Assembly (NCBI GenBank): GCA_964523645.1 | Contig: CAZGAW010000002.1 | Location: 30,253 to 94,252, forward strand | DNA: 64,000 nt | Reading direction: 5' to 3' | Source of the DNA: an uncultured bacterium | GTDB taxonomy: Bacteria > Poribacteria > WGA-4E > WGA-3G | Shown here: positions 877 through 60,946 of the stretch, piece after piece | Layout of the letters: each line of letters begins with the position of its first letter | Numbering within the stretch: the first letter of the stretch is position 1 | Translations under genes and position numbers: made by a program | The notes under the pieces: generated by a model | Told to the model about the DNA's origin: nothing | Databases searched by the model: none | The model's input: the letters and a program-made list of their open reading frames with translations, nothing else

Positions 877-1410
877 ATGGAAGATCAACTCAAAATGGCG
901 CGCCACAGTTTGGAAAATCTGCCGACACTCCAATGTCCTGACGGGTATCATATCCGAACCTATCGGCAAGGAGATGAAATATACTGGGCGCGAATAATGG
1001 ATAGAACCTTTGTAGACAACGGAAGAACTGCCGAAGACACCTACGCTAATGTTATTAACCAACCCAATTTTGATCCAGACGGCTTCTGTTTCGCTATCCA
1101 CAATGATGTCCCTATCGGCACGGCGTGTGCTTGGAATAAATGTCTTCGCGGCAAACCTATTGGTTATATTGACATGCTCGCTGTGCTTCCAGAGCACACA
1201 GGACATAAACTCGGCAAATGGTTAACAGTGTTCCTCCTCCACTATTTCAAAGCACAACGTGTGGTGTATGTCATGTTAGACACAGACGATTTTCGACTCC
1301 CCGCAATCAAAAATTATCTCAACCTCGGGTTTGTTCCCGTTTATGCGGGTGAAAGTCACCTGCGACGTTGGCGAAGTATCTTTGAAAAGTTAGGACTTTT
1401 CAAAAAATGA
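877..1410 (+). CDS. GNAT-family N-acetyltransferase (paralog 2)
   Basis: MEDQLKMARHSLENLP aligns with MARQLRMVRTNLENLP of the upstream gene; same EHTGHKLGKW and YLNLGF motifs; start trimmed from ORF-track 742 (overlaps upstream gene) to ATG 877. Confidence 0.65.
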   Translation: MEDQLKMARHSLENLPTLQCPDGYHIRTYRQGDEIYWARIMDRTFVDNGRTAEDTYANVINQPNFDPDGFCFAIHNDVPIGTACAWNKCLRGKPIGYIDMLAVLPEHTGHKLGKWLTVFLLHYFKAQRVVYVMLDTDDFRLPAIKNYLNLGFVPVYAGESHLRRWRSIFEKLGLFKK

Positions 1411-3128
1411 GAGTGCTTCTCGCCGTGAGAAACTGTTTTCGTTTATCGAATAACTTCGTTATATCCGCAATTCTCATCGGCGGCTTCAGTTTCCGACTCA
1501 TCGGCATAACCGTTGGCTTGCCTGATGCTCCCGACCCACGTGAAGTGCTAATCGCACAAGATGTGCTAAATCTCATCCACTTCACAGCACCCCCTGAAAT
1601 CTACAATTGGCCCGGAACAGCATGGTTTTACGTCATTGCTGCGGTGGGCAAATTGCTATCCCTCGTAGGTCTGCCTCTCACGGAAACTCGCGTAATTTTA
1701 TTGGCACGCTGTATCAATACGCTGTTGTCTACAGCGACCCTCTGGTTCACCTATCGCATCGGGGTTCACGGCTACAATAGGCGTGTCGGTCAACTCGCAG
1801 CCGGATTGCTCGCTGTTGCGATGCTACATGCCACCAACGAATCACGTTTTGCACTTGTGGACATTCCCGCAACCTTCTGTGTGACACTGTTTCTTTGGCT
1901 TGTGGCGCGTACGCGTTCTTCTTCAGTTTCTCCTACCTTCCAAACTGCGATATGGCTCGGTGTCATTGCGGGAATCGGTTTCGCCGTCAAATTTACAACC
2001 GTCTTTGCCGGTTTTTCTGTGTTGGTTTTCATTAGAAGTGAGGGTTTTTATAAAAAATTAGCAACAATTATAGGTATTTCTGCATTAACCTTTTCGTTCC
2101 TCTGTCCTTATTGGTTCATTGATCTGGTTTCACCCGAATGGAATCTCTTCTTTGAGGATTTCTGGTATGAAGCAACCCATTATCACCGCGGGCATTTCGG
2201 TCTCATCACTACGGCAGAATCTGGATTATTCCATCGGTTTATCTATTTGTGGACGCTCCTTAAGTGGGGGATGGGCTTGCCACTCGCACTCCTTGTTAGC
2301 TTGGGGGTCTTGTGTGCGCTCGCATCGCTTAAAGCGGTCAGCCGTCAGCAAAAAGGGTTCGTTAAACGGAAACCTCTTGACCGAAAGCCGATAGTTTCCG
2401 ATAATCAACAATTAGAAATACTCCTGCTCGCTTTTGTTGTGCCCTATCTACTCTTTATCGGGGTACACAAGGTTAAGTTTGTGCGTCATCTATTGATACT
2501 CTATCCAGCATTCACGCTGCTTGCCGCTGCCGCACTCACACGTATGCCAAACATTGTGGAGGCACTTCTACAGTCAAGACATTTCACTAAAAAGGTGCCA
2601 CCGAGAGGACTGAGTACATTTCCGGAATGGTTTGGTATAATTTTGGGGAGTGTTGTAGTGCTTTACTCGTTAGTTTACACGCTTGCCTTTGCTTCTATCC
2701 TATTCTCGCAGCCGACGAAGATTGCAGCATCCGATTGGGTAACCGCGCACATTCCTCAGGAAGAATCTATTGCTGTTGCGCCAGAGATCCTATTCAACTG
2801 GCTTCTCCCTGAATTAGACTTCGTAGGAACAGATGAAAAGGTGAAATGGGTGCTTATCCTTGTGCCGGACTATGAAGTGTTCAGAAAATACCAAGAATCT
2901 CCGCAACGGTATCAAGATGAGGATTGGTACCCTCTCAGCGAGATTGAGTTCGAGGAAACGCTCACATTTTACACGCGAGTTTTAAGGGAAGGAAGTCCGT
3001 ATGAATTGCAAAAGACCTTCCGCCGCATACCGAAGTTCTTAGGTATCCAGATCTCCGATGACGGCGCGCCGTTTCCGATGCGAGCCCTTGCACATCCGGA
3101 ACTCCGCATCTACCGGTACCTCAATTGA
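1407..3128 (+). CDS. polytopic membrane protein, GT-C/GT39 (ArnT/PMT)-like glycosyltransferase candidate
   Basis: 573 aa, many hydrophobic helices, ATGA start/stop overlap with the upstream GNAT gene; family assignment by overall layout only. Confidence 0.45.
   Translation: MRVLLAVRNCFRLSNNFVISAILIGGFSFRLIGITVGLPDAPDPREVLIAQDVLNLIHFTAPPEIYNWPGTAWFYVIAAVGKLLSLVGLPLTETRVILLARCINTLLSTATLWFTYRIGVHGYNRRVGQLAAGLLAVAMLHATNESRFALVDIPATFCVTLFLWLVARTRSSSVSPTFQTAIWLGVIAGIGFAVKFTTVFAGFSVLVFIRSEGFYKKLATIIGISALTFSFLCPYWFIDLVSPEWNLFFEDFWYEATHYHRGHFGLITTAESGLFHRFIYLWTLLKWGMGLPLALLVSLGVLCALASLKAVSRQQKGFVKRKPLDRKPIVSDNQQLEILLLAFVVPYLLFIGVHKVKFVRHLLILYPAFTLLAAAALTRMPNIVEALLQSRHFTKKVPPRGLSTFPEWFGIILGSVVVLYSLVYTLAFASILFSQPTKIAASDWVTAHIPQEESIAVAPEILFNWLLPELDFVGTDEKVKWVLILVPDYEVFRKYQESPQRYQDEDWYPLSEIEFEETLTFYTRVLREGSPYELQKTFRRIPKFLGIQISDDGAPFPMRALAHPELRIYRYLN
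2334..2414. repeat. heptad-armed palindromic element inside CDS, in frame (81 bp)
   Basis: GCGGTCAGCCGTCAGCAAAAAGGG-loop-GAAACCTCTT-GACCGAAAGCCGATAG...; encodes KAVSRQQKGFVKRKPLDRKPIVSDNQQ in a loop of the membrane protein. Confidence 0.65.
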
Positions 3129-5188: not shown

Positions 5189-8100
5189 ATGTTACCCGTA
5201 TCACGCGCAATTTTTCCTTATTCATATTTATGTTATTTTTTTCTCCTCACGCTGAACCTGCCTGTCCAGCCTATAAACGCAGCCGATCACGAAGGCGTAG
5301 CAAATCCGCCGCTTCCAACGGCTAACGACTCAGGCAGCGAAACGCAAACATTAATATTCGGGACAACCTCAACAGAAACCTTCAGTTTTGAAGATGTTTA
5401 TCGCATAGAACTCAGTTTAAATGTATCGGGAAATATTGAAATCATTGCTACAGAGGATAATGCCATCGCCGTCACGCTTGAAAAACAGGCACAGGCTACA
5501 AACACAGAACAAGATGACCTGGTTCGCGATTATCTTGATAACATTACCTTGAGAGGAACGCGAAGTGATAACACACTCCAGTTAACGATACGACTGCCGG
5601 GAAATTCTCCTCAAACCGAACCAAACCCACTTTCTAATATAGGCGAATCACAAGCGATACGCTCTGATGGACTTCAACTGAAATGTACAATTAAAACCCC
5701 AGCGGATGTCGCTGTTAAACTCCAGGCAAAAGTTGGAGATATACACCTTCAGCGTATCCGAGGGAAGATAGAAGCTTCGACAGGGACAGGAAACGTCCAT
5801 TTAAGTGAAACCTTAGGCAACTATAACATCAGTGTAACCCAGGGCAACATTGACGGGAAAATTTTGCTGACCCACGGACAAAACAAGTTGGAAACCCAAA
5901 ATGGCGCAATTGGATTGGTAATACTTGACCGTGTTGCAGCACCCATGGATATAACCGCTCAAGGGGGCAGCATCCGTTTACGACTTCCTGAGAATTATGC
6001 TGCGGATGTTGAATTTGAGAGTGAGAAACAGCAAATCGTTATTAATTTGCCCGTACAACTGGACGAGGAAACCGGATTAACCCTTATTAACGACGGGGGT
6101 CCACTGTTCCGGTTGAAAGCCACCGACGCGATTTCTCTACTACCGAGTTCACCAGGCGGCGAAAACACACCCATAGATGCTGAAGCGGATCCATTCATAG
6201 ATGCCGTTCAACCTGTCCCACAAATAGCAGCCCACCCCACTATTGATGGCGATTTATCTGAAATCGCTTGGCAATCAGCCGCGCGACTCTCCCCGTTCCA
6301 AAATCCAGATGGTACTGATGTGCCAAACAATCCAACTGAAACTTTTTTAATGTGGGATGCCGAGAATTTTTATGTCGGTGTAAAAGCCTATCTGTCTGAT
6401 TCATATCTTCCGTATATCTCACAAACGCAGCAGGATTCACCAATTTGGGAGGACGAATGTATCGAAATCCTAATTGATTCTAATCCGGAAACTGATACCT
6501 ATTATCATCTTGTCATCAATCCAATTAACGCGTATTTTGACCAGCAGGTGAATACATCTGGCGAGCCCAATTTTCGGTTTGCACCTCATGATGTCCAACG
6601 GACTTTAAGCCAGAAAACAATGCAAACGGCGTTCAAAGCGGATAGCGCGTGGAACTCAGAGGCGAAAGTTGCCAGCCAAATTAACAGCACTTTTTGGAGT
6701 CTTGAAGTTTCACTTCCGCGTAAAATGTTAGAATCCGTTTCAAAAGTGGATTCGCAGCCGACATCCCCTTTTGAAAACAAGTGGCTTTTTAATATCCACC
6801 GTAAGATGCACAGTAGCAATATGAAGAGCCTTATACCTGCTACGTCCAGAGAATATAGTTACTGGCTGCCAATTTACGATAACGAGCATCCGTGGTGGCC
6901 GCATTCGCCACAAGAGTATACGGGACCGCTTTCAAAACGCAATGGACCCGCAATGGGTGTCTTAGAATTCATAGCGACCCCGCCTACCGCTGAAGATTTT
7001 GCATCCGAAACAAAATTTCAGGTTGCTGCTATTGAAATTAAAGGGAACACCACGATTCCAACAGAGGTCATCCAACAGTCACTTCCCATCCAACCTGGGG
7101 ATATTATCACAAGTCCGCAGCTTTCTTGGTTGATCGCGGAATTGGGGGAACAGGACCGGTTCCAAGACGTGCGTTTGGAAACTAAGCAGGTCAGTATTGA
7201 CAGTGAAGAAACCATTAACAGTCAGCAATCAGAAATCAGTAACCAGCAGGCAGGTGTGAATGCATCGGAAACCTCTGTACCGATGGCTGAAAACCGACAA
7301 TTGAAAGCCATTCCAAGTGTCAGTTTGCATATCCGAGTTACAGAAACCCTTGTGCTTTTTGTCGAGCAAATCGAGATCAAAGGAAATAGGAGTTTCCCTG
7401 CGCAATTCATTAAAGAGTGGTTTCAGTTAGAATCCGGCTATCTCGCTGTTGCAGTTGTTATACTAAAACAACAATTAATTGCTGATTTTTATTCAAATCG
7501 CGGATATGAATTCGCCACGGTTACGTATCAATCTACCGACAATGTACTTGAATTTAACGTCAACGAGGGAACATTGCACGAAATTCGTTTCACTGGTAAC
7601 ACGCAAATCTCGCGGGCGGAACTGTTGTCAGCACTTGACTTAAAGACTGAAGATAACGATGAAAAACAAGGTTCACAAACTTCGGATATCTACCATCATG
7701 CGCTTGGTCAATCGAAAATAAACCGTATGCGCAAAGAGCTCAGCGAAAACAGCGAACATTTCAGATCAATACGGGATTGGCGTGTTCAGCGCGAAGGTGG
7801 AAAAAACATCATGATTGTTGAAATTGAAGAACGTCCATTAGTGAGACCGGGGGGGTTCCCAATTCTTCAATTCAATCGTGTTCACGGGTTAATGCTTGGC
7901 GCGGGGGGAAGACTCTCGACGCATCTCACGGGTAAGGAACAGGTTTTCGGTTCAATAAGCCGTGGATTTTCGAGCAAAATATGGAACTATCACGCCGGTA
8001 TAGAAAAAGGGGTCCTTAAACGGCAGCCCCTCAGGTTCGGAGGTAGTTTCTATAAACTCACCGATATTAGCTCCAGCGTCTATTTGGGGCCTACTGAGGT

Positions 8101-8968
8101 TAATCTGAGTGCTGCTTATTACGGTTTCGCACTTCAGGATTATTACGAGCGTCAGGGCTCGCGCGGATGGATAACGTATGCACCATCAGAATCGACCTAT
8201 CTTAAAATGGAATTCACAGGCGAGAGACACGGTAACCTTTCCAAATCGACGGATTGGAGTTACTTAAACCGAAATCGACTCAAGCGCGGGAATTCGCGGA
8301 TTAACCGTGGACACTTGAGAAGCCTTTCTCTCGTTTATGCCTTTGATACACGAGACCACAAATCCGCTATCACACGGCATTTTCATACCTTGTTTCGTGC
8401 AAATGAACGGACCCGACGCGGGTGGCGCGGTCAATTTGTAATTGAGATGGCAGGACAGGACTTTGGCGGGGACTACACCTTTAGTCGTTTTGGATTTGAA
8501 TTGGCACGCTACACACCTTTGTCGAATCTACATCACTTAAACGTTCGGATTGGCGGCGATTTTTCTGATGCACCCCTACCCAGACAACGCCTCCTGCATC
8601 TTGGCGGTGCTAATAACCTGCGTGGTTACAATTTTAACGCCTTCGCTGGGGATAACAGGCTTCTGATTAACCTTGAGTATCGACTCATCAAAGAGATAAT
8701 TCCGAGCGATCAAGATGCTGTAATCGGGTGGACGCTCAGTTGTTTCTTGGATGCGGGTAATGTGTGGTGGCATGATGATATAACTTCTGATCTTGAGAAC
8801 TTTATAACGCAGATCAAAACGTCAATCGGGGTCGGAGGCTCTGTTTTTGTAGACCCATTCGGGAACTCTGCCCCCTGGAGCCTTGGGGTTGAAGTGGCAG
8901 AACCCCTTAACGCATCTTTTTCCTTACGAAATCCGAGCATCATTCTGCGCTTGGATCGTATGTTTTAA
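5189..8968 (+). CDS. large outer-membrane fusion protein: signal peptide, DUF4097/toastrack-like, CBM9-like, POTRA repeats, Omp85 (D15) beta-barrel
   Basis: 1259 aa. GDIHLQRIRGKIEASTGTGNVHL-type beta-solenoid repeats; IDGDLSEIAWQSA...WDAENFYVGV (CBM9-like); IEIKGNTTIP and IEIKGNRSFP (POTRA); aromatic-rich C-terminal barrel ending in F. Confidence 0.6.
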   Translation: MLPVSRAIFPYSYLCYFFLLTLNLPVQPINAADHEGVANPPLPTANDSGSETQTLIFGTTSTETFSFEDVYRIELSLNVSGNIEIIATEDNAIAVTLEKQAQATNTEQDDLVRDYLDNITLRGTRSDNTLQLTIRLPGNSPQTEPNPLSNIGESQAIRSDGLQLKCTIKTPADVAVKLQAKVGDIHLQRIRGKIEASTGTGNVHLSETLGNYNISVTQGNIDGKILLTHGQNKLETQNGAIGLVILDRVAAPMDITAQGGSIRLRLPENYAADVEFESEKQQIVINLPVQLDEETGLTLINDGGPLFRLKATDAISLLPSSPGGENTPIDAEADPFIDAVQPVPQIAAHPTIDGDLSEIAWQSAARLSPFQNPDGTDVPNNPTETFLMWDAENFYVGVKAYLSDSYLPYISQTQQDSPIWEDECIEILIDSNPETDTYYHLVINPINAYFDQQVNTSGEPNFRFAPHDVQRTLSQKTMQTAFKADSAWNSEAKVASQINSTFWSLEVSLPRKMLESVSKVDSQPTSPFENKWLFNIHRKMHSSNMKSLIPATSREYSYWLPIYDNEHPWWPHSPQEYTGPLSKRNGPAMGVLEFIATPPTAEDFASETKFQVAAIEIKGNTTIPTEVIQQSLPIQPGDIITSPQLSWLIAELGEQDRFQDVRLETKQVSIDSEETINSQQSEISNQQAGVNASETSVPMAENRQLKAIPSVSLHIRVTETLVLFVEQIEIKGNRSFPAQFIKEWFQLESGYLAVAVVILKQQLIADFYSNRGYEFATVTYQSTDNVLEFNVNEGTLHEIRFTGNTQISRAELLSALDLKTEDNDEKQGSQTSDIYHHALGQSKINRMRKELSENSEHFRSIRDWRVQREGGKNIMIVEIEERPLVRPGGFPILQFNRVHGLMLGAGGRLSTHLTGKEQVFGSISRGFSSKIWNYHAGIEKGVLKRQPLRFGGSFYKLTDISSSVYLGPTEVNLSAAYYGFALQDYYERQGSRGWITYAPSESTYLKMEFTGERHGNLSKSTDWSYLNRNRLKRGNSRINRGHLRSLSLVYAFDTRDHKSAITRHFHTLFRANERTRRGWRGQFVIEMAGQDFGGDYTFSRFGFELARYTPLSNLHHLNVRIGGDFSDAPLPRQRLLHLGGANNLRGYNFNAFAGDNRLLINLEYRLIKEIIPSDQDAVIGWTLSCFLDAGNVWWHDDITSDLENFITQIKTSIGVGGSVFVDPFGNSAPWSLGVEVAEPLNASFSLRNPSIILRLDRMF
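7219..7310. repeat. heptad-armed palindromic element inside CDS, in frame
   Basis: CAGTCAG CAATCAG AAATCAG TAACCAG CAGGCAGGTGTG-loop-GAAACCTCTG-...GCTGAAA ACCGACA ATTGAAA GCCA; almost the same inner core as the intergenic copy at 20740-20780; encodes NSQQSEISNQQAGVNASETSVPMAENRQLKA in an inter-POTRA linker. Confidence 0.65.
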
Positions 8969-14105: not shown

Positions 14106-14243
14106 CTATCAGTTGTCAGTCGTCAGTTGTCAGTTAAGAGGTTTCTTTGTTACGGCTTATTACACCTTGGCGTACTCCAAGCAAAAATAAATTGTTACCG
14201 AAAGTCTTTTAACTGATAACCGATAACTGATAACTGATAACTA
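14106..14243. repeat. heptad-armed palindromic element (complete, intergenic)
   Basis: Left CTATCAGTTGTCAGTCGTCAGTTGTCAGTTAAGAGGTTTC, right GAAAGTCTTTTAACTGATAACCGATAACTGATAACTGATAACTA; arms are imperfect reverse complements; ends 8 nt before ATG 14252. Confidence 0.85.
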
Positions 14244-16147: not shown

Positions 16148-16181
16148 GGAAAGCAAAAGTCTGAACTATGATTTGGAGATT

Positions 16182-16416
16182 TATAGGATTAGGACTTACG
16201 CAGCCTGCTCATTTGAGCATCTGACTTTATGGTTTGTGTCTCTTTGTAGCACAAACTTTCCAGTTTGTGTCTCTGTGTAGCACAAACCTTATAGTTTTTG
16301 GCTCTTTGTAGCACAAACTTTCCAGTTTGTGTCAGAAGAACGTGTGTTTTTGCGAGAGTTCCCATCTCACAGGACGGGCTACCGAAACTACAATTGCGTA
16401 AGTCCTGAGGATTATA
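16182..16416. mobile_element. MITE-like element bounded by ~21-bp inverted repeats (TATAGGATTAGGACTTACGCA / TGCGTAAGTCCTGAGGATTATA)
   Basis: Terminal inverted repeats seen directly; the interior carries the 31-bp tandem hairpin array; no ORF. Confidence 0.55.
16232..16334 (+). repeat. 3.3 tandem copies of a 31-bp unit, each containing hairpin GTTTGTG-N11-CACAAAC
   Basis: Copies at 16232-62, 16263-93, 16294-324 and a partial copy at 16325-34; units are contiguous with no spacers. Confidence 0.85.
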
Positions 16417-16494
16417 GGTTTTCAGGATAATCCTAAGCGCATAGCCCATAATGAAATTATGCCTTAAATGGCATAATTTGTCTTTGCTTTACAT

Positions 16495-20075: not shown

Positions 20076-20128
20076 GCAAATCCATAAGCGCAAGCCGCTG
20101 TAGGCTTGCCGGACAATAGGAGAAAATA

Positions 20129-20713: not shown

Positions 20714-20720
20714 AATAGGA

Positions 20721-20815
20721 GTCAGCCATCAGCAGTCAGCAGTCAGCAAGAGGGTGTAATTACATCAGAAAACCTCTTAACTAACAGCCGATTGCTGATA
20801 CCCTGATAGCCACTG
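20721..20815. repeat. heptad-armed palindromic element (complete, intergenic)
   Basis: GTCAGCCATCAGCAGTCAGCAGTCAGCAAGAGGGTG-loop-AAAACCTCTTAACTAACAGCCGATTGCTGATACCCTGATAGCCACTG; ends 2 nt before ATG 20818. Confidence 0.8.
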
Positions 20816-24046: not shown

Positions 24047-26038
24047 TCAGAAGGTATGCTCAATCCCCCAAAAAATCATCTGTTTGAACGATGGATCCGA
24101 GGGTGCATCGAGTGGAAAAGCGAATTCAACCCGAAATATGCCAGCATTGCTAACTTTGGCAAATCCACCTCGTAGTCCGAATCCAACGCTCCGTTTGGGT
24201 TCGGCAAAGTTAAATGTGTGTTGCCCATTCCAGATGTAACCGATGTCAGTAAAGGCAATGCCACTTAAGATGAGACCGAGGTTGACAGAGCGTTTGATAA
24301 ACGGCTTCACAATGAATGTAGCAACGGCTTCAATTCCATCATCAAGCTTCCTGAAGAGCGTTCCACCGAAAACTGTTCGACTTTCAAGGCGTAGTACCAT
24401 CATTTTTTCACCGTTAAATTGCCGGTAGTTGTAACCCCGCAACCCATTGAAAGCACCAAGGATGACTTGGCTTTCACCCCGCCATCCGAACAGCATTTCT
24501 GTCTTAAATTCCGCTACGAACGTTTGATGAAAATCGAAAAAGCCGTTCTTACGAAATCCTTTGTCAACTGTATAGATGTCCCCTGTATTGAATACATCTG
24601 TGTAATACCATGAAGTCCGCGCCTGAATCATAGAACGCTCAATTCGGGTTGTAAGATATGTCCCGATGTCTATAAGCATTGTGCCTAATATGTGGTTTCC
24701 GCCTGTCCACCCCGATCTACCAATAAGGTTTGCATAAGTTTCTGCCCTGTCTGAACCGAATAAAGAGGAGGCTTGTCCTAATGAGAAAGCGTATTCAGAC
24801 CCGACAAAAAAGTCTTCTTCACGCCCTATTCTCCTGATGAACCGAGTTTTGTGGTAGGTGACGCGTTTCCGACCCATAGTGACACCGACCAGTTTAATGT
24901 CACGGTTTGATGGTTCCGCCATAGAAGCATGAGGTTTCTCGATTAACACGTAATTTGAGCGGCGTGAGCTTGCCCAAAGTCCAACGTAATTTTGCCGTTT
25001 CCGGTCCCCAAAATACCGTCGGATTCTCCCAGACGCGCCTTGAAGGTTCACCTCAAATCTATCTGTTGCGACTAACCCATGCGTGTGCGACTCCGTTTCA
25101 TACCATGCAAAATCGCCTGTTGCTTCTGAGAAGCTAAACCGCGCGCTCCAACGGCTCTTCAACGTGTATTGCGGACGTTCCAGCACAACCGCCCATGAAT
25201 CTCCTTCACGTTTTTGGATATAGGCACCATCAAAGTTCCAATGTGAACTGAAAACACGCGGCATTCTATACTTCCATGTGAGTAGACTCTTGGTCTTTTC
25301 TCCAATTTCGCTAATCCGTTGATAGCGAAGTTCGGTGTCATGACCAGAACCGAATACATTGGATTCCCGTATCCCTAAAAGAAATACCCCGCCTTGACTG
25401 TTCAATGCCGGATCGAAGGACGGAAGAGGCGGAGACCAGAGTTCTGTGATGTTGACTTGAATCGTAACCGAGTTTGAATTGGCATTCCAAAGCGTCTCAA
25501 TTCGAGCGGCTCCAATGTAAGTCTTATCTCGAAGTATTTGTTCGCTTTCTTCTTTATCTGCTTCTACATAAACATCCCCCACCTCAAATAGGAGTTCACG
25601 GAGAATTACGTCTTCTTTCGTTTTTTCGTTACCTGATAAAGTAATGTCCCCAACAAGACCTTCGTCAATCTCAATGCCGAGATAAATACCATCTCTGAAT
25701 TTTTTCACGGAGAGTTGTTCTTCATCCACACGCGCATAACGGTAGCCGTTTTCCTGATAGAAACGTGTAATCGCTTCAAAGTCTGCCTTCAGGATCGTTT
25801 CCTCGTAAATACTCCACACATCTGTCCGCATCAGCGCACGGATTTGCTGTTCAGAAAATGATTGGTTTCCCTTGATTACGACACTGCGGACAATATTCGC
25901 TTCATCTTCTATAGGGGTTATTCTGTGCTGCGCGGTATTTCCCGTTTCGGATGAAATCTCAACTTGTATACCGATACTCAGTAGAATAATTATGCAAAAA
26001 GTCCGAAACGAGTGCCAGACATACTGAAAATCTGTCAT
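24047..26038 (-). CDS. Omp85/BamA-family outer-membrane protein (POTRA + surface-antigen barrel)
   Basis: VVIKGNQSFSEQQIRALM and TLSGNEKTKEDVILREL (POTRA); C-terminal barrel ending ...WGIEHTF; start overlaps the upstream stop (TAATG). Confidence 0.7.
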   Translation of the reverse strand: MTDFQYVWHSFRTFCIIILLSIGIQVEISSETGNTAQHRITPIEDEANIVRSVVIKGNQSFSEQQIRALMRTDVWSIYEETILKADFEAITRFYQENGYRYARVDEEQLSVKKFRDGIYLGIEIDEGLVGDITLSGNEKTKEDVILRELLFEVGDVYVEADKEESEQILRDKTYIGAARIETLWNANSNSVTIQVNITELWSPPLPSFDPALNSQGGVFLLGIRESNVFGSGHDTELRYQRISEIGEKTKSLLTWKYRMPRVFSSHWNFDGAYIQKREGDSWAVVLERPQYTLKSRWSARFSFSEATGDFAWYETESHTHGLVATDRFEVNLQGASGRIRRYFGDRKRQNYVGLWASSRRSNYVLIEKPHASMAEPSNRDIKLVGVTMGRKRVTYHKTRFIRRIGREEDFFVGSEYAFSLGQASSLFGSDRAETYANLIGRSGWTGGNHILGTMLIDIGTYLTTRIERSMIQARTSWYYTDVFNTGDIYTVDKGFRKNGFFDFHQTFVAEFKTEMLFGWRGESQVILGAFNGLRGYNYRQFNGEKMMVLRLESRTVFGGTLFRKLDDGIEAVATFIVKPFIKRSVNLGLILSGIAFTDIGYIWNGQHTFNFAEPKRSVGFGLRGGFAKVSNAGIFRVEFAFPLDAPSDPSFKQMIFWGIEHTF

Positions 26039-28464
26039 TATACTTCACCTACAGTCAGCGCACCTTCGCGGTTTGATAGAAAACTTTCGAGAAGCATAAG
26101 ACAGACGACTAAAACGAGCAATTCACCCCAAATTTCCCTGCCGTGTCGCTTGACGTTGTAGGTATCGACTGCTGCCGCGTTTCCCTCGATTTCCGGATCT
26201 GCTGCTGTCTGTGCCCCGATGCGTGCCGCTGCCTGTGCCAGCGAAATTTCTGTTAAGTCGGCTTCCGTAGTGTCAACATTAACCGCAAAAAAGTCTCGTT
26301 GCGTTCTATCTTGCGTCTGTACCTCGATCTGATAGATACCGGGACGTTCTGTGCCTTGAAATCGCAGTGTGCCATCTTCAGCGATTGGTACGACTGTGGA
26401 ATGGCTCTTGGCTTTCGGTTCGCGGTTCTCGGTTCTTGGAACTTGTGGCGGTTGCGCGCTACCTTCTGCCGGCTGTTGACTGTTGACTGGCATTAGATGA
26501 ATAGCGGCCTTCCCGCCAGCACTGCGAGGATAATGCGCCGTATAGGTATCACCGATATGTCCACCCCATGTTAAGAAATTCTTGCTGGATACCGTCGCGT
26601 AAAGCACGCTCTGTTGGAGCATCGGAAGGAAATACGGATTAACAAGCAGATCGTTTGTATAATGGCTGTCAGAAAGCATCGGTTGTCGATTGTCAGTTAA
26701 TCGGTTTTCTGGTGTAGGGGCAATCCCTTGTGGTTGCCCGTTTGGGGCAGGCACAAGACCTGCCCCTACAAACCGACCGCTGACCCCTGATTGCTGACGG
26801 CTGACCGCCATTAAGCCACAGTTATAAAGCAGGACGGTACCTGTGCCTTGACTTCGTTCAACGAGAAAAGGTGTGTCGTCCCCGAAACGGGCAATTACAT
26901 TAGATTCTGACACAGGCTGTAATGCCATACCGTTATAAAACTGCGGGGCGTACTGCATAGAAAACCCTTCACTTGGAAAGATATCAAAGATAGGATGTAT
27001 TTCCTGGTACGCTTGCACTCGTTGTGGAGGTGTCCATGTCAGTGTGCTACCAAGTTGTGCAGGCAACCAAACATTACTGAACCCATTGTAGCTTGTTGCC
27101 TCGGTACGGCTGCTCACGAAAACAATGATACTTTTACCTTGTCGGATGAATTCTTGCAGTTGCGCATTAATCTGGCGCGACATTGTCAACACATCCGCGA
27201 GGATAATGACATCATAGTCCTCCAACGGGAAGGTTTCAAAATCAACAGGTGTGCATTGCGTCGGCAGAATCATTACATTGGCTGTCGGCAATCGGCTATC
27301 AGCAATCAGTTGATCGCTGTAGCGGTTGCTATCCTTTTCACCGGTTTCCACAAGACTCTCTTGCTGACGGCTGACGGCTGACGGGTGACCGCTATGTCTA
27401 TGTGGATTTAACGCTAATGTGAGATATTCCGTTTGTTCGCCTACACAGAGTACGCGGACTTCCCCGAGGGCATCCAAAGCAAAATAACGCTGGTTGTCGA
27501 TATTAAGGCGGTCATCCGTTAGTGTGAAGTGACCGATATGCGTACCGGGCGTAGAAAAGTTGTATGTTAAAGCGGTGTTCAGCGATTGGTTCGCTGCCGC
27601 GGAAAAACTCATGGTTTTTTGTTTCTCGCCTCCAATAAACAGTGTAAGTATATTTTGATCCAAAGGTGCTACTGAATGATTCACAGTCGTCACGTTCAAT
27701 TGGAATGGTAAATCTACGCCTATTAGTTGATTTGAAGGACGAATTTCTTTAATACTTATATTATGTGCGTCACCTTCGGCAACCGGAATCAGAGAGATAC
27801 GGGCACCAGAGCGGTTTGGGAGTCTACCCCAATTCTTCCATCCGTTTCGGGCGAAGTCTGAAATCAAATATATTTCCTTGTGTAGGGGCGCGGTTACCTC
27901 GCCCTTACGTTCAGTGAGAATTTCGTGGGCGAGTTCTAGGCTGGATTGGACATTCGTCGTACGGTAAGAAGTTTCTGTGTCGTTGATTGCTGTGATAACG
28001 CTCTCAAGGTCCGGTGTGAGTTGCCGAAAGATAGGTTTCGGGATGTCTGACATTAATATAAGCGCAGCACTATCGCCGTGCCGCAAGGTATCAATGATGT
28101 CGGTTGCCAAAGTTTTCGCTTTCTCGAATCTGATACCATTAATGTCTTGATACGCCATGCTATAAGAATTATCTAAGACAATAACCACATCTGTCTTCGC
28201 TCGCACGGAGGCAACAGGCAGTCCGAGCGTCAAAAACGGACGTGCCAAGGCGAGTGCAATGAGTGCAATAATCGCCATCCGTAAGAGCAAAATGAGAAGT
28301 TGACGGAGTTGGAAGCGACGGGCATTCTCTCGGTGTGCTGCCGTGAGAAATATCAGGCTGCTAAAGTCGATTGTCACAACACGACGACGGTTCCAGAGGT
28401 GGATGACCAGGGGGATACCAGCGGCAAGAAGTCCAAAGAGAAAAAGCGGGTTGAGAAATGCCAT
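26038..28464 (-). CDS. BatA-N (aerotolerance N-terminal double-TM) + VWA-domain protein, 808 aa
   Basis: MAFLNPLFLFGLLAAGIPLVIHLWNRRR is the classic BatA_N/TIGR02226-type start; VVIVLDNSYSM looks like a VWA MIDAS start; C-terminal TM. Confidence 0.7.
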   Translation of the reverse strand: MAFLNPLFLFGLLAAGIPLVIHLWNRRRVVTIDFSSLIFLTAAHRENARRFQLRQLLILLLRMAIIALIALALARPFLTLGLPVASVRAKTDVVIVLDNSYSMAYQDINGIRFEKAKTLATDIIDTLRHGDSAALILMSDIPKPIFRQLTPDLESVITAINDTETSYRTTNVQSSLELAHEILTERKGEVTAPLHKEIYLISDFARNGWKNWGRLPNRSGARISLIPVAEGDAHNISIKEIRPSNQLIGVDLPFQLNVTTVNHSVAPLDQNILTLFIGGEKQKTMSFSAAANQSLNTALTYNFSTPGTHIGHFTLTDDRLNIDNQRYFALDALGEVRVLCVGEQTEYLTLALNPHRHSGHPSAVSRQQESLVETGEKDSNRYSDQLIADSRLPTANVMILPTQCTPVDFETFPLEDYDVIILADVLTMSRQINAQLQEFIRQGKSIIVFVSSRTEATSYNGFSNVWLPAQLGSTLTWTPPQRVQAYQEIHPIFDIFPSEGFSMQYAPQFYNGMALQPVSESNVIARFGDDTPFLVERSQGTGTVLLYNCGLMAVSRQQSGVSGRFVGAGLVPAPNGQPQGIAPTPENRLTDNRQPMLSDSHYTNDLLVNPYFLPMLQQSVLYATVSSKNFLTWGGHIGDTYTAHYPRSAGGKAAIHLMPVNSQQPAEGSAQPPQVPRTENREPKAKSHSTVVPIAEDGTLRFQGTERPGIYQIEVQTQDRTQRDFFAVNVDTTEADLTEISLAQAAARIGAQTAADPEIEGNAAAVDTYNVKRHGREIWGELLVLVVCLMLLESFLSNREGALTVGEV
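26664..26810. repeat. heptad-armed palindromic element inside CDS, in frame (147 bp)
   Basis: GGCTGTCAGAAAGCATCGGTTGTCGATTGTCAGTTAATCGG - hairpin GGGGCAGG..CCTGCCCC - CCGCTGACCCCTGATTGCTGACGGCTGACCGCC; encodes AVSRQQSGVSGRFVGAGLVPAPNGQPQGIAPTPENRLTDNRQPMLSDS. Confidence 0.7.
27281..27394. repeat. heptad-armed palindromic element inside CDS, in frame (114 bp)
   Basis: GGCTGTCGGCAATCGGCTATCAGCAATCAGTTGATCGC ... CCACAAGACTCTCTTGCTGACGGCTGACGGCTGACGGGTGACCGCTA; encodes HPSAVSRQQESLVETGEKDSNRYSDQLIADSRLPTA. Confidence 0.7.
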
Positions 28465-28467
28465 TTT

Positions 28468-28628
28468 AGTTATCAGGTGTCAGTCGTCAGTCATCAGTTT
28501 TTAGAGTCGTCAGTTAAGAGGGTTTTTTAACAATCTTATCTTCGTTGGGCATCAGTCTCTATTTAGAACGATGAGTGTTACCAAACCTCTCTTGTGACTG
28601 ATAACTGATAACCGATAACTGACAACTA
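28468..28628. repeat. heptad-armed palindromic element (complete, intergenic)
   Basis: AGTTATCAGGTGTCAGTCGTCAGTCATCAG...GTCGTCAGTTAAGAGGGTTTTTT - 60 nt - AAACCTCTCTTGTGACTGATAACTGATAACCGATAACTGACAACTA. The terminal CTA is the TAG stop of the upstream (minus) gene; the other end is 3 nt from start 28464. Confidence 0.85.
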
Positions 28629-59724: not shown

Positions 59725-60327
59725 ATGTTTGTTTCAGATGAAGATTTGATGGTCAAATGTAGTAAAGGGGATATGAGTGCCTTCGAGTTGTTGGTGCGGC
59801 GCTATCAGAACCCTTTGATTAACTACATTCACCGCGCTATTGACGATTATCAGCGCGCCGAAGACCTCTCCCAAGAGACGTTCCTCCGGGTCTTCAAGAG
59901 TGCAAATCGTTACGAACCAAAGGCATCGTTCAAAAGTTGGCTCTATACAATCGCCACCAATTTATGTCGAAATGAGATCCGGAACCGTACGCGTCGCAAT
60001 ACCTGTTTTCTGGAAGATTTGGTTGAAGAGGGCGAGGATGTTTACCATGCCGACATCATGCGGGATACCCGCTACCTACCAGATTTGCTCGTTGAAAAAA
60101 AAGAACAGAGACAGATTATCCGGAAAGCACTCGCACAATTACCAGAAAATCAACGCGTGGCCCTAACGCTCGTCACCTATCAGGACTTACGGTATGAAGA
60201 TGTAGCGAAAGTTCTTGGATGCTCGGTAGGTGCTGTAAAGGCATTGATTCATCGTGCTCGGCAGAAAATGAGAAAACTGCTCACCAAAGCAGGCATAGGA
60301 GAGGAGAGTCTCAATGCGAAAATATAA
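59725..60327 (+). CDS. ECF (sigma-70 group IV) RNA polymerase sigma factor
   Basis: Region 2 AEDLSQETFLRVF and region 4 LPENQRVALTLVTYQDLRYEDVAKVLGCSVGAVKALIHRARQKM. Confidence 0.85.
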   Translation: MFVSDEDLMVKCSKGDMSAFELLVRRYQNPLINYIHRAIDDYQRAEDLSQETFLRVFKSANRYEPKASFKSWLYTIATNLCRNEIRNRTRRNTCFLEDLVEEGEDVYHADIMRDTRYLPDLLVEKKEQRQIIRKALAQLPENQRVALTLVTYQDLRYEDVAKVLGCSVGAVKALIHRARQKMRKLLTKAGIGEESLNAKI

Positions 60328-60946
60328 ACAGACTGGATTTCGACATGTGCTCAACTCGGAATGTGAAACACAATTTGCGAGTCCAGATGAACTTTCAGCG
60401 TACATTGATAAAGAATTGCCAGCATGGAAACGCCATCTCATCCGCCGGCATCTCAGGAAATGTGCGACTTGTGCGGGGCACATTCAACAGTTAAAACAAA
60501 CAGACCACTTCCTGCGCCAAAGCGATGGGGTTGAAGTCTCTGATGGCTTTTTAAACGATGTAATGATGCGCGTATCGGAAGCAACGAAACACCAGCAACA
60601 ACAGGATTCGCTTTGGGTACGTGCCATGCAATTCATTGGAACATCGCTTGGATGGGCGCGGCACGGTTCAGTACTGACTGACAAGCTTCGGTACAGTATT
60701 CGGACCCGCAGTCCGGTTTATATCTTTGTACTGACCTTCGCTGTTTTTACGATGGTGGGGGCGACGCTTTACCAATCCTCGAGTGATAGATTTGGACAAT
60801 CACGACACACACTGAAGAATTCACAAGAACTCGATGGTGAAAGATTAATTTCCTTTGAGGTTATTCAACACGAGCCACCGAAACGCTTACTTACAACCTA
60901 CCTGAGTCAGCCATCAGCCGTCAGTCGTCAGCCGTCATCAAGATAG
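60314..60946 (+). CDS. anti-sigma factor (zf-HC2) with TM segment
   Basis: HLRKCATCAGH (Hx3Cx2C), overlap with the sigma gene, central TM VYIFVLTFAVFTMVGATL; the last ~14 codons are read from a heptad repeat. Confidence 0.6.
   Translation: MRKYKQTGFRHVLNSECETQFASPDELSAYIDKELPAWKRHLIRRHLRKCATCAGHIQQLKQTDHFLRQSDGVEVSDGFLNDVMMRVSEATKHQQQQDSLWVRAMQFIGTSLGWARHGSVLTDKLRYSIRTRSPVYIFVLTFAVFTMVGATLYQSSSDRFGQSRHTLKNSQELDGERLISFEVIQHEPPKRLLTTYLSQPSAVSRQPSSR

Follow-up and report, generated by a model that had tools for sequence, protein, structure and literature searches.

Heptad-armed palindromic repeats read in frame in a BatA/VWA gene of Candidatus Poribacteria: copies of a dispersed, hairpin-forming family

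In-frame palindromic elements came as a surprise when they were found in Rickettsia. To our knowledge, they continue to be regarded as almost exclusive to it. As far as the account in PMC10969869 goes, the Rickettsia palindromic elements (RPEs; Ogata et al. 2000, 2002) are inserted in frame in many genes and encode a conserved peptide. Tandem heptamers occurring as hairpins are known from filamentous cyanobacteria as STRR sequences (PMC2670836), and REP/REPIN elements are mobilised by RAYT transposases (Bertels and Rainey 2011, PMC3116915). Here we describe a family of repeats with heptad arms in a 64,000-nucleotide stretch of contig CAZGAW010000002.1 (positions 30,253 to 94,252; the whole stretch is called the window), two of which lie in frame within a gene encoding an 808-residue BatA_N/VWA protein. 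The two segments are copies of a dispersed Poribacteria repeat and probably survive in indel-tolerant linkers, in a manner resembling that of RPEs.

A Candidatus Poribacteria origin is indicated by the source names of the orthologues of the gene and by the titles of 48 related genome loci. In Poribacteria the gene has more than 120 orthologues; 120 proteins (74–100% identity) were aligned, and DNA was compared for about 50 species-level loci together with targeted contigs, so that the comparison took in about 170 orthologues. Loci are numbered L and proteins P below. The gene is an intact open reading frame (ORF) on the minus strand, in which Pfam assigns residues 1–76 to BatA and 93–204 to VWA_2, with a weak ThuA-like match at residues 406–549. 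When the window is compared with L003, L004 and L015, the changes lying outside the inserts show a strong third-position bias (for example, 62/37/223 at positions 1/2/3). A bias of this kind reflects purifying selection, so that the gene is not a pseudogene, and an assembly artefact is ruled out by the same in-frame architecture in more than 100 independent assemblies, closed long-read genomes included. The gene and the elements within it are as follows.

26038–28464, minus strand: host gene, 808-aa BatA_N + VWA + ThuA-like membrane protein (intact ORF, Pfam, orthologues, third-position bias).
27277–27393, minus strand: site 1 element (aa 358–396, SGHPSAVSRQQESLVETGEKDSNRYSDQLIADSRLPTAN), complete, 'GEKDSNR' subfamily (from its sequence and a core shared with site 2 in other lineages).
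26665–26808, minus strand: site 2 element (aa 553–600), canonical subfamily, a nested palindrome taking the place of most of its core (un-nested form in L050, L015 and L041).
26714–26769, minus strand: nested 56-bp REPIN-like doublet of two inverted GTAG-headed imperfect palindromes, translated as VGAGLVPAPNGQPQGIAPT (from its sequence and DNA fold).
About 26398–26490, minus strand: site 3 (aa 659–689), probable decayed third in-frame copy, with two left heptads (GTCAACA twice) and three right heptads (CCGAGAA, CCGCGAA, CCGAAAG).

A first-pass annotation of the sequence had placed two arm-core-arm elements in frame in this ORF, and indeed both peptides that it quoted are present in the translation and the complementary arms are found. 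Its coordinates, 26664–26810 and 27281–27394, mark real elements but are not codon-aligned and give stops when translated directly; the codon-aligned peptide ranges are 26665–26808 (aa 553–600) and 27280–27387 (aa 360–395). That both lengths are multiples of three is true of the coordinates chosen, but it is forced by the open ORF. The nested doublet and the third copy escaped that annotation. In the sense strand, site 1 has the left arm GGTCACC CGTCAGC CGTCAGC CGTCAG and the right arm CTGATTG CTGATAG CCGATTG CCGACAG on either side of the 'GEKDSNR' core; on the plus strand its NNRTCRG run at 27282–27309 faces a CYGAYNN run at 27364–27384. The corresponding runs of site 2 lie at 26664–26704 and 26773–26807. 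The nested 56-bp doublet, as DNA, forms a single hairpin (z = −5.1; −4.5 and −2.7 for its halves). The doublet is confined to the four closest orthologues (P0001–P0004), is present as a single copy in the window, and was not found in 71 loci. Site 3, although decayed here, is occupied in orthologues by clear elements with several cores and nested mini-elements. Predicted insert-encoded peptides include QQEGVTSPENLLTDSR and VGAGLVPAPNGQPQGIAPTPENR.

Alignment of coding and intergenic copies on one core defines the family unit as an (NNGTCAG)n arm, a core and an inverted (CYGAYNN)n arm, the canonical core being CAAGAG-N15-GAAAACCTCTT; the heptad arms are mutually inverted, so that terminal inverted repeats are present. 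The motif CTGACNGCTGAC, with at most one mismatch, has 23 matches in the window against 0.66 expected from shuffled sequences, a number that none of 100 shuffles attained. The window holds about 16 elements or half-elements, mostly between genes, including those with the heptads CTGATAA and CTGAAAA that the first-pass annotation had pointed out, and others with CTGACAA. Three intergenic copies serve for comparison.

20719–20801, plus strand: reference canonical copy with GTCAG arms, CAAGAG-N15-GAAAACCTCTT core and CYGAY arms (RNA fold z = −4.4).
14106–14240, plus strand: near-perfect 135-nt hairpin (RNA fold z = −8.5).
28470–28625, minus strand: copy with A/T-rich arms filling the gap from the upstream transglutaminase-like gene to the BatA start (RNA fold z = −6.2).

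The core of the copy at 20719–20801 recurs in three in-gene copies, namely at BatA site 2 (L050, L015), site 1 (L071) and site 3 (L071). More generally, non-repetitive cores of 15–60 nt are common to coding copies at different sites, to copies in other genes and to intergenic copies. The core of a second subfamily, to which the site 1 copy of the window belongs (GAAAANGATAGCAACCG; ...GGTGAAAAGGATAGCAACCG...), is found at site 1 in the window and in L015 but at site 2 in L006, L071 and L073, so that one subfamily occupies two positions of the same gene depending on the lineage. The intergenic copies vary as well: that at 28470–28625 is shortened in L074, there is no spacer whatever in L002 and L072, and the arm length of the copy at 20719–20801 differs from that in L074 by 14 and 22 nt. 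As to position, five intergenic heptad elements (at 14106, 20719, 63354, 28625 and 32075) begin 0–11 nt past the upstream stop codon, and such elements often occupy the entire spacer of co-directional genes.

In the alignment of 120 orthologous proteins, sites 1 and 2 are hypervariable and their flanks nearly invariant. At site 2, many orthologues carry a native linker that is short and unrelated (LLTQQTTASNVDTTSARAATYT, LLAQQGAAATAN or LLARTATYT, for instance), and a subset has the heptad element; the version in the window is found only in P0001–P0004, and L001 and L003–L005 lack the element. The states of site 1 comprise no fewer than five types of element, the native linker HNPAALPFPSGNTYQD... 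and forms that are almost empty. At each of the three positions, linkers are short or missing in deep Poribacteria homologues (53–58% identity) and in those from Planctomycetota, so that distant homologues lack the segments. Homologous peptides in distant orthologues free of the repeat, which by the first-pass annotation's own terms would have refuted its reading, were thus not found, and close relatives differ by the presence or absence of exactly these segments. On a neighbour-joining tree of conserved columns, the 120 proteins require by parsimony a minimum of 13 presence/absence changes at site 1 and of 12 at site 2, and some of these changes may be recombination rather than new events.

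Three close comparisons illustrate the turnover. L070 and L071 have 93.5% nucleotide identity across the gene; a 69-bp arm-core-arm unit with a flanking GATAGC direct repeat separates them cleanly at site 1, and a 30-bp mini-palindrome nested in the third element site is a further difference. L072 and L073, which come from the same sample (ERZ24894577) and are about 99% identical over 5.5 kb, differ only at element positions; at site 2 one of them has a native linker of 57 nt where the other has an element of 117 nt, a complete swap. The site 1 elements of the window and of L074, its nearest relative (91% nucleotide identity over 18 kb), are entirely different between identical flanks, and many further indels of this pair coincide with small repeats of several families. 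Several sites are replacement hot spots rather than places of simple insertion, and replacement is no rarer than insertion. The first-pass description of RPE-like in-frame insertion is therefore right in substance as far as the segments are concerned, but 'insertion' is too simple a word at least for site 2, and for site 1 in comparison with L074, where a native linker or another element has been replaced.

These comparisons bear on the possibility that the segments are native low-complexity linkers grown in place by heptanucleotide slippage, with no mobile DNA involved and with their likeness to intergenic copies due to convergence. Heptad arrays are inherently prone to slippage, and arms do differ by whole heptads or 21-nt steps: L050 and L015 differ by 42 nt, which is three heptads per arm, and intergenic arms differ by 14, 21 and 22 nt. 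Slippage, however, can make neither an inverted second arm nor the 69-bp arm-core-arm unit in one step, and distant homologues are without such linkers. The sharing of non-repetitive cores among different sites, genes and intergenic copies largely refutes the idea, and we regard slippage as a very improbable origin for the segments.

The reading frame of the inserts had been explained in the first-pass annotation by G/C-rich triplets that avoid stops, and hence by selection for read-through. This explanation fails. The plus-strand CTGACGG and CTGACCG arms are antisense to the minus-strand gene, and TTATCAG, the reverse complement of CTGATAA, is free of stops in all frames; moreover, L074, at 91% identity, reads CTGATAA heptads in the sense orientation at site 1. 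The arms at risk of TGA are the other two, and there CCGA replaces CTGA only where TGA would be in frame. Over all sequences, the in-frame YGA of sense-oriented arms is always CGA (0 T, 35 C), as compared with 78 T and 105 C out of frame, 150 T and 57 C in intergenic arms, and 167 T and 32 C in antisense arms, counts that include orthologous copies and are therefore not independent. Each focal copy has one of six frames open, the one in use, and full intergenic copies have zero to two, the copy at 20719–20801 having one. The simplest reading is that the open frame reflects a survivorship filter, in which only frame-keeping copies persist, and not a design purged of stops. At every canonical in-gene copy examined (at least six independent sites) the arm-core junction is read as QQE, QQK or QQA, and this constancy is consistent with the single open frame of the reference copy at 20719–20801.

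Intergenic copies form strong RNA hairpins (z = −8.5, −6.2 and −4.4), and coding copies fold weakly, with z of −2.5 at site 1, +0.68 at site 3, and −1.7 and −0.75 in others, so that the hairpin has decayed in coding copies. The site 2 value of −5.5 is owed to the nested palindrome. Within the inserts, substitutions are evenly spread over codon positions (e.g., 3/5/4), and divergence at first and second positions exceeds that in the rest of the gene; for these reasons there is little protein-level constraint on the inserts. Relative to the third-position divergence of the gene, element divergence is lower in distant pairs and higher in close pairs.

A function at the level of nucleic acid, either an mRNA hairpin affecting translation or stability or a protein-binding site, could in principle retain the in-gene copies and leave the peptide incidental. 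Consistent with this, third-position divergence at site 1 is 0.10 as compared with 0.33–0.35 in the rest of the gene (window vs L003, L004 and L015; p about 0.001–0.002), and the site 2 fold is strong. Nevertheless, the latter stems from the nested palindrome, the minimum-energy fold of site 1 leaves its two arms unpaired with one another, folding of the other coding copies resembles that of shuffled sequence, many orthologues have no element at all, and close pairs diverge more, not less, within the element. Retention for such a function is, in our judgment, highly unlikely, and the coding copies look instead like tolerated passengers that are probably neutral.

The inserts are hydrophilic, with a grand average of hydropathy of −0.6 to −1.7 as compared with +0.03 for the remainder of the protein. 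This composition, together with the tolerance of homologues for indels at the same positions, would be compatible with a location of the inserts in surface loops.

In-frame copies are not confined to the BatA gene, and at least three further ORFs of the window carry whole or partial copies.

2335–2394, plus strand: in-frame copy in the GT39/PMT_2 gene (ORF 1407–3128), aa 310–330, AVSRQQKGFVKRKPLDRKPIV (from orthologue comparison).
7219–7300, plus strand: in-frame copy in the 1259-aa POTRA/Omp85 gene (ORF 5189–8968), aa 677–704.
60904–60946, plus strand: left arm of a family copy, forming the final 14 residues of a zf-HC2 anti-sigma-like ORF (60314–60946) together with its stop codon.

Among 120 orthologues of the GT39 protein, about 40 have a 9-aa native loop, and the rest have heptad elements whose cores differ or are nested, or else the arms alone, a turnover like that of the BatA loops. 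In relatives, the POTRA gene downstream of BatA also has copies just past its signal peptide. The in-frame host genes seen so far (BatA, GT39, two POTRA/Omp85 genes and the anti-sigma factor) all encode membrane or envelope proteins, a sample too small to distinguish bias from chance. Beyond the orthologous loci, the canonical core had four matches in JGI metagenome contigs, two of them real, in one gene, and two due to chance. On the contig designated L075 it is read in frame in an unrelated 662-aa ORF as ...NQQEGVTSPENLLTDSRRPIADSH..., and the peptide SPENLLTDSR(Q/R)PIADSH recurs in BatA and in that ORF. The subfamily core GGTGAAAANGATAGCAACCG had no match in the same contigs, a collection that seems poor in Poribacteria. 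At the protein level, a 48-aa consensus peptide had no match in an index of 5.8 billion proteins, the query being too short and of too low complexity for its absence to say much, and the 48-aa peptide of the window, likewise too short and of too low complexity for the tool, had none at E ≤ 0.001 among 1.84 billion representatives. No Rfam family matched anywhere in the window, and Rfam may not contain RPEs.

The envelope setting and the rapid turnover raise the question of whether exposed loops are actively diversified, with gene conversion, from other strains or from the hundreds of copies in the genome, using the heptad arms as portable regions of homology. Several observations are in keeping with such a cassette mechanism: the same arms hold different cores in close relatives, each site has undergone at least 12–13 changes of state, the divergence of elements is decoupled from that of the gene, strains about 99% identical differ only at these sites, and every host gene seen encodes an envelope or membrane protein. 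On the other hand, no dedicated machinery was found among the ORFs scanned, the inserts lack codon-position bias and so give no sign of selection on the peptide, intergenic copies show similar turnover, the envelope bias amounts to about six genes in one neighbourhood, and recurrence at the same site is also expected from a pure tolerance filter. Active diversification therefore seems unlikely to us, if less so than slippage or retention for a nucleic-acid function. If it were true, cores and nested mini-palindromes would be reshuffled among genomic copies and between co-resident strains, and exposed loops of envelope proteins would be rewritten by recombination, perhaps under pressure from phage or of recognition by the sponge host, which would go beyond the tolerance of selfish DNA.

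Both BatA segments are copies of a dispersed, hairpin-forming Poribacteria repeat, and the reading that we consider probable is that they survive in frame in tolerant linkers, in a manner like that of RPEs. Membership in the family, polymorphism by presence/absence and by replacement, the constraint on frame, nesting, loss of hairpin potential in coding copies and the slight protein-level constraint on the inserts are all observed, and the mode of entry, translation, surface location and neutrality are deduced from them. The family resides mainly between genes, often within a few bases of a stop codon, and copies would enter indel-tolerant linkers by a step of transposition or recombination, persisting only if the frame of the host stays open. 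Once there, they would be translated as hydrophilic, probably disordered loop peptides. An occupied loop would then become a hot spot of turnover through frame-preserving changes in the arms (slippage), exchange or deletion of cores and nesting of smaller palindromes, and homologous recombination over short tracts could swap whole alleles between strains.

A number of points weigh against this reading. The census is small, comprising 64 kb and gene-centred loci, and many of the copies counted are orthologous and hence not independent. None of 21 ORFs scanned from the window and the loci contains a transposase domain, the whole genome not having been searched. The GATAGC direct repeat between L070 and L071, the single clean filled/empty pair, may be either a duplicated target or what a deletion left behind, and the change could have gone in either direction; the other pairs (L072/L073 and window/L074) are replacements without an interpretable target duplication. 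Recombination is a better fit than classical transposition for the replacements found at site 2 and, in the window as against L074, at site 1. The decoupling of element divergence from gene divergence could reflect nucleotide-level constraint, or gene conversion and allele exchange, rather than neutrality. Translation of the inserts is predicted from the integrity of the ORF. An AlphaFold2 model of the whole protein, made from a 52-sequence alignment limited to orthologues more than 74% identical, places both sites in coil between strands and helices, with a mean predicted local distance difference test score of 36 that is too poor for a fold search, and a sequence search of the PDB covered only the VWA domain, with no solved homologue over the insert region.

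Other small repeats occur nearby. [quoted passage not shown] A tiny palindromic element of 26–33 bp, of the form ATTGTCC(S)GC-stem-loop-stem, is found at about 20089–20114 of the window, at site 3 of L070 and at site 1 of L010, L007 and L048. It is polymorphic in close relatives and is translated in BatA orthologues as TLSR..IEARA or LALSRRSPTRGLRR. An element rich in GGAAGG/CCTTCC, with the peptide EEGKDGRMG...PTFQPSNLPT, is present at site 1 of L041 and L048, at site 3 of several orthologues and in the GT39 loop of relatives, and is nested in heptad elements of several genes. The mini-palindrome GGAATCGGGGTTACAAACCCCTCCTAC (peptide MESGLQTPPT) lies in frame in the transglutaminase-like gene of L072, at about 900–1000, in one of the two strains that are about 99% identical, and also within the 'native-type' BatA site 2 linker of the P0037–P0074 group. 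In L073, a 200-bp inverted-repeat element with the ends ACCTTGCGG...CCGCAAGGT separates the transglutaminase-like gene from BatA (1301–1500); in L072 the two genes abut (TAAATG). Finally, a 313-bp segment of the window at about 16180–16492, in which a unit of about 30 bp (ACAAACTGGAAAGTTTGTGCTACAAAGAG) is repeated in tandem some three times, is absent from L074.

RPE-like behaviour is thus probably met with in a repeat family of an uncultivated phylum, in which the modular heptad arms, the nested tiny elements and the loop-specific turnover between strains about 99% identical stand out. A 2024 review considered similar protein evolution mediated by MITEs in other prokaryotes only 'conceivable' (PMC10969869). 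Closed Poribacteria genomes, OZ246979.1, OX639992.1 and OY761015.1 among them, and sponge metagenomes are already plentiful, which makes rates of gain and loss, choice of target, the role of recombination and co-option of loops directly testable, questions that Rickettsia could not answer well. In practical terms, the segments will mislead alignment of orthologues, annotation of domains and strain-level variant calling in metagenome-assembled genomes of sponge symbionts.

Four described systems offer points of comparison. Like MITEs known to form in-frame fusions (ERIC, BOX and the Anabaena MITEs; PMC10969869), the heptad elements are small, non-autonomous and mostly intergenic, have inverted-repeat ends, and are occasionally intragenic with an open frame. 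Their ends, however, are variable heptad arrays and not fixed terminal inverted repeats, no parent insertion sequence is known, and a single 6-bp direct repeat (GATAGC) is at most a candidate target-site duplication. The nested 56-bp unit resembles a REPIN in that two short imperfect palindromes in inverted orientation fold together into a single hairpin, and each half begins with GTAG, a head typical of REPs. Unlike REPs, which are extragenic by definition, this unit lies in coding sequence and is translated as part of the ORF, and it is a singleton in the 64 kb and the 71 loci, RAYT genes not having been searched for genome-wide.

In architecture, the closest likeness appears to be to the cyanobacterial STRR hairpins combined with the nesting of the small dispersed repeats (SDR) of Nostoc (Elhai et al. 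2008, cited in PMC3116915). As in STRR, tandem 7-bp units form intergenic hairpins; the STRR units (STRR1–3) of heterocystous cyanobacteria are CCCCAGT, TTGGTCA and CAACAGT, whereas the unit here is NNGTCAG/CYGAYNN and the host is not a cyanobacterium. Elhai et al. are said to have described, in 2008, very small mobile SDR elements (about 20–30 nt) that nest in the heptamer arrays of Nostoc, and the Poribacteria counterpart of this reported nesting would be the 26–33-bp palindromes and the 56-bp doublet found inside heptad elements. All of these are likenesses of the heptad element to the RPE, STRR/SDR, REPIN and MITE families and not assignments to any of them, and our literature searches found no paper linking Poribacteria to such repeats.

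In behaviour, RPEs are the closest match. As with RPEs, a dispersed palindromic repeat of about 60–150 bp occurs between genes and in frame in unrelated genes, the host genes are intact, the segments are absent from orthologues, and one frame gives a recurring peptide, here QQE(G/N)V(T/G)SPENLLTD. The differences, in a comparison made by description and not by sequence, begin with the hosts, since Poribacteria are another phylum, of extracellular sponge symbionts with free-living relatives. Unlike RPEs, moreover, the elements have arms of tandem heptads instead of a unique palindrome, and interchangeable cores in which smaller elements are nested; the same loops are repeatedly hit or replaced, and they are polymorphic between strains that are about 99% identical.

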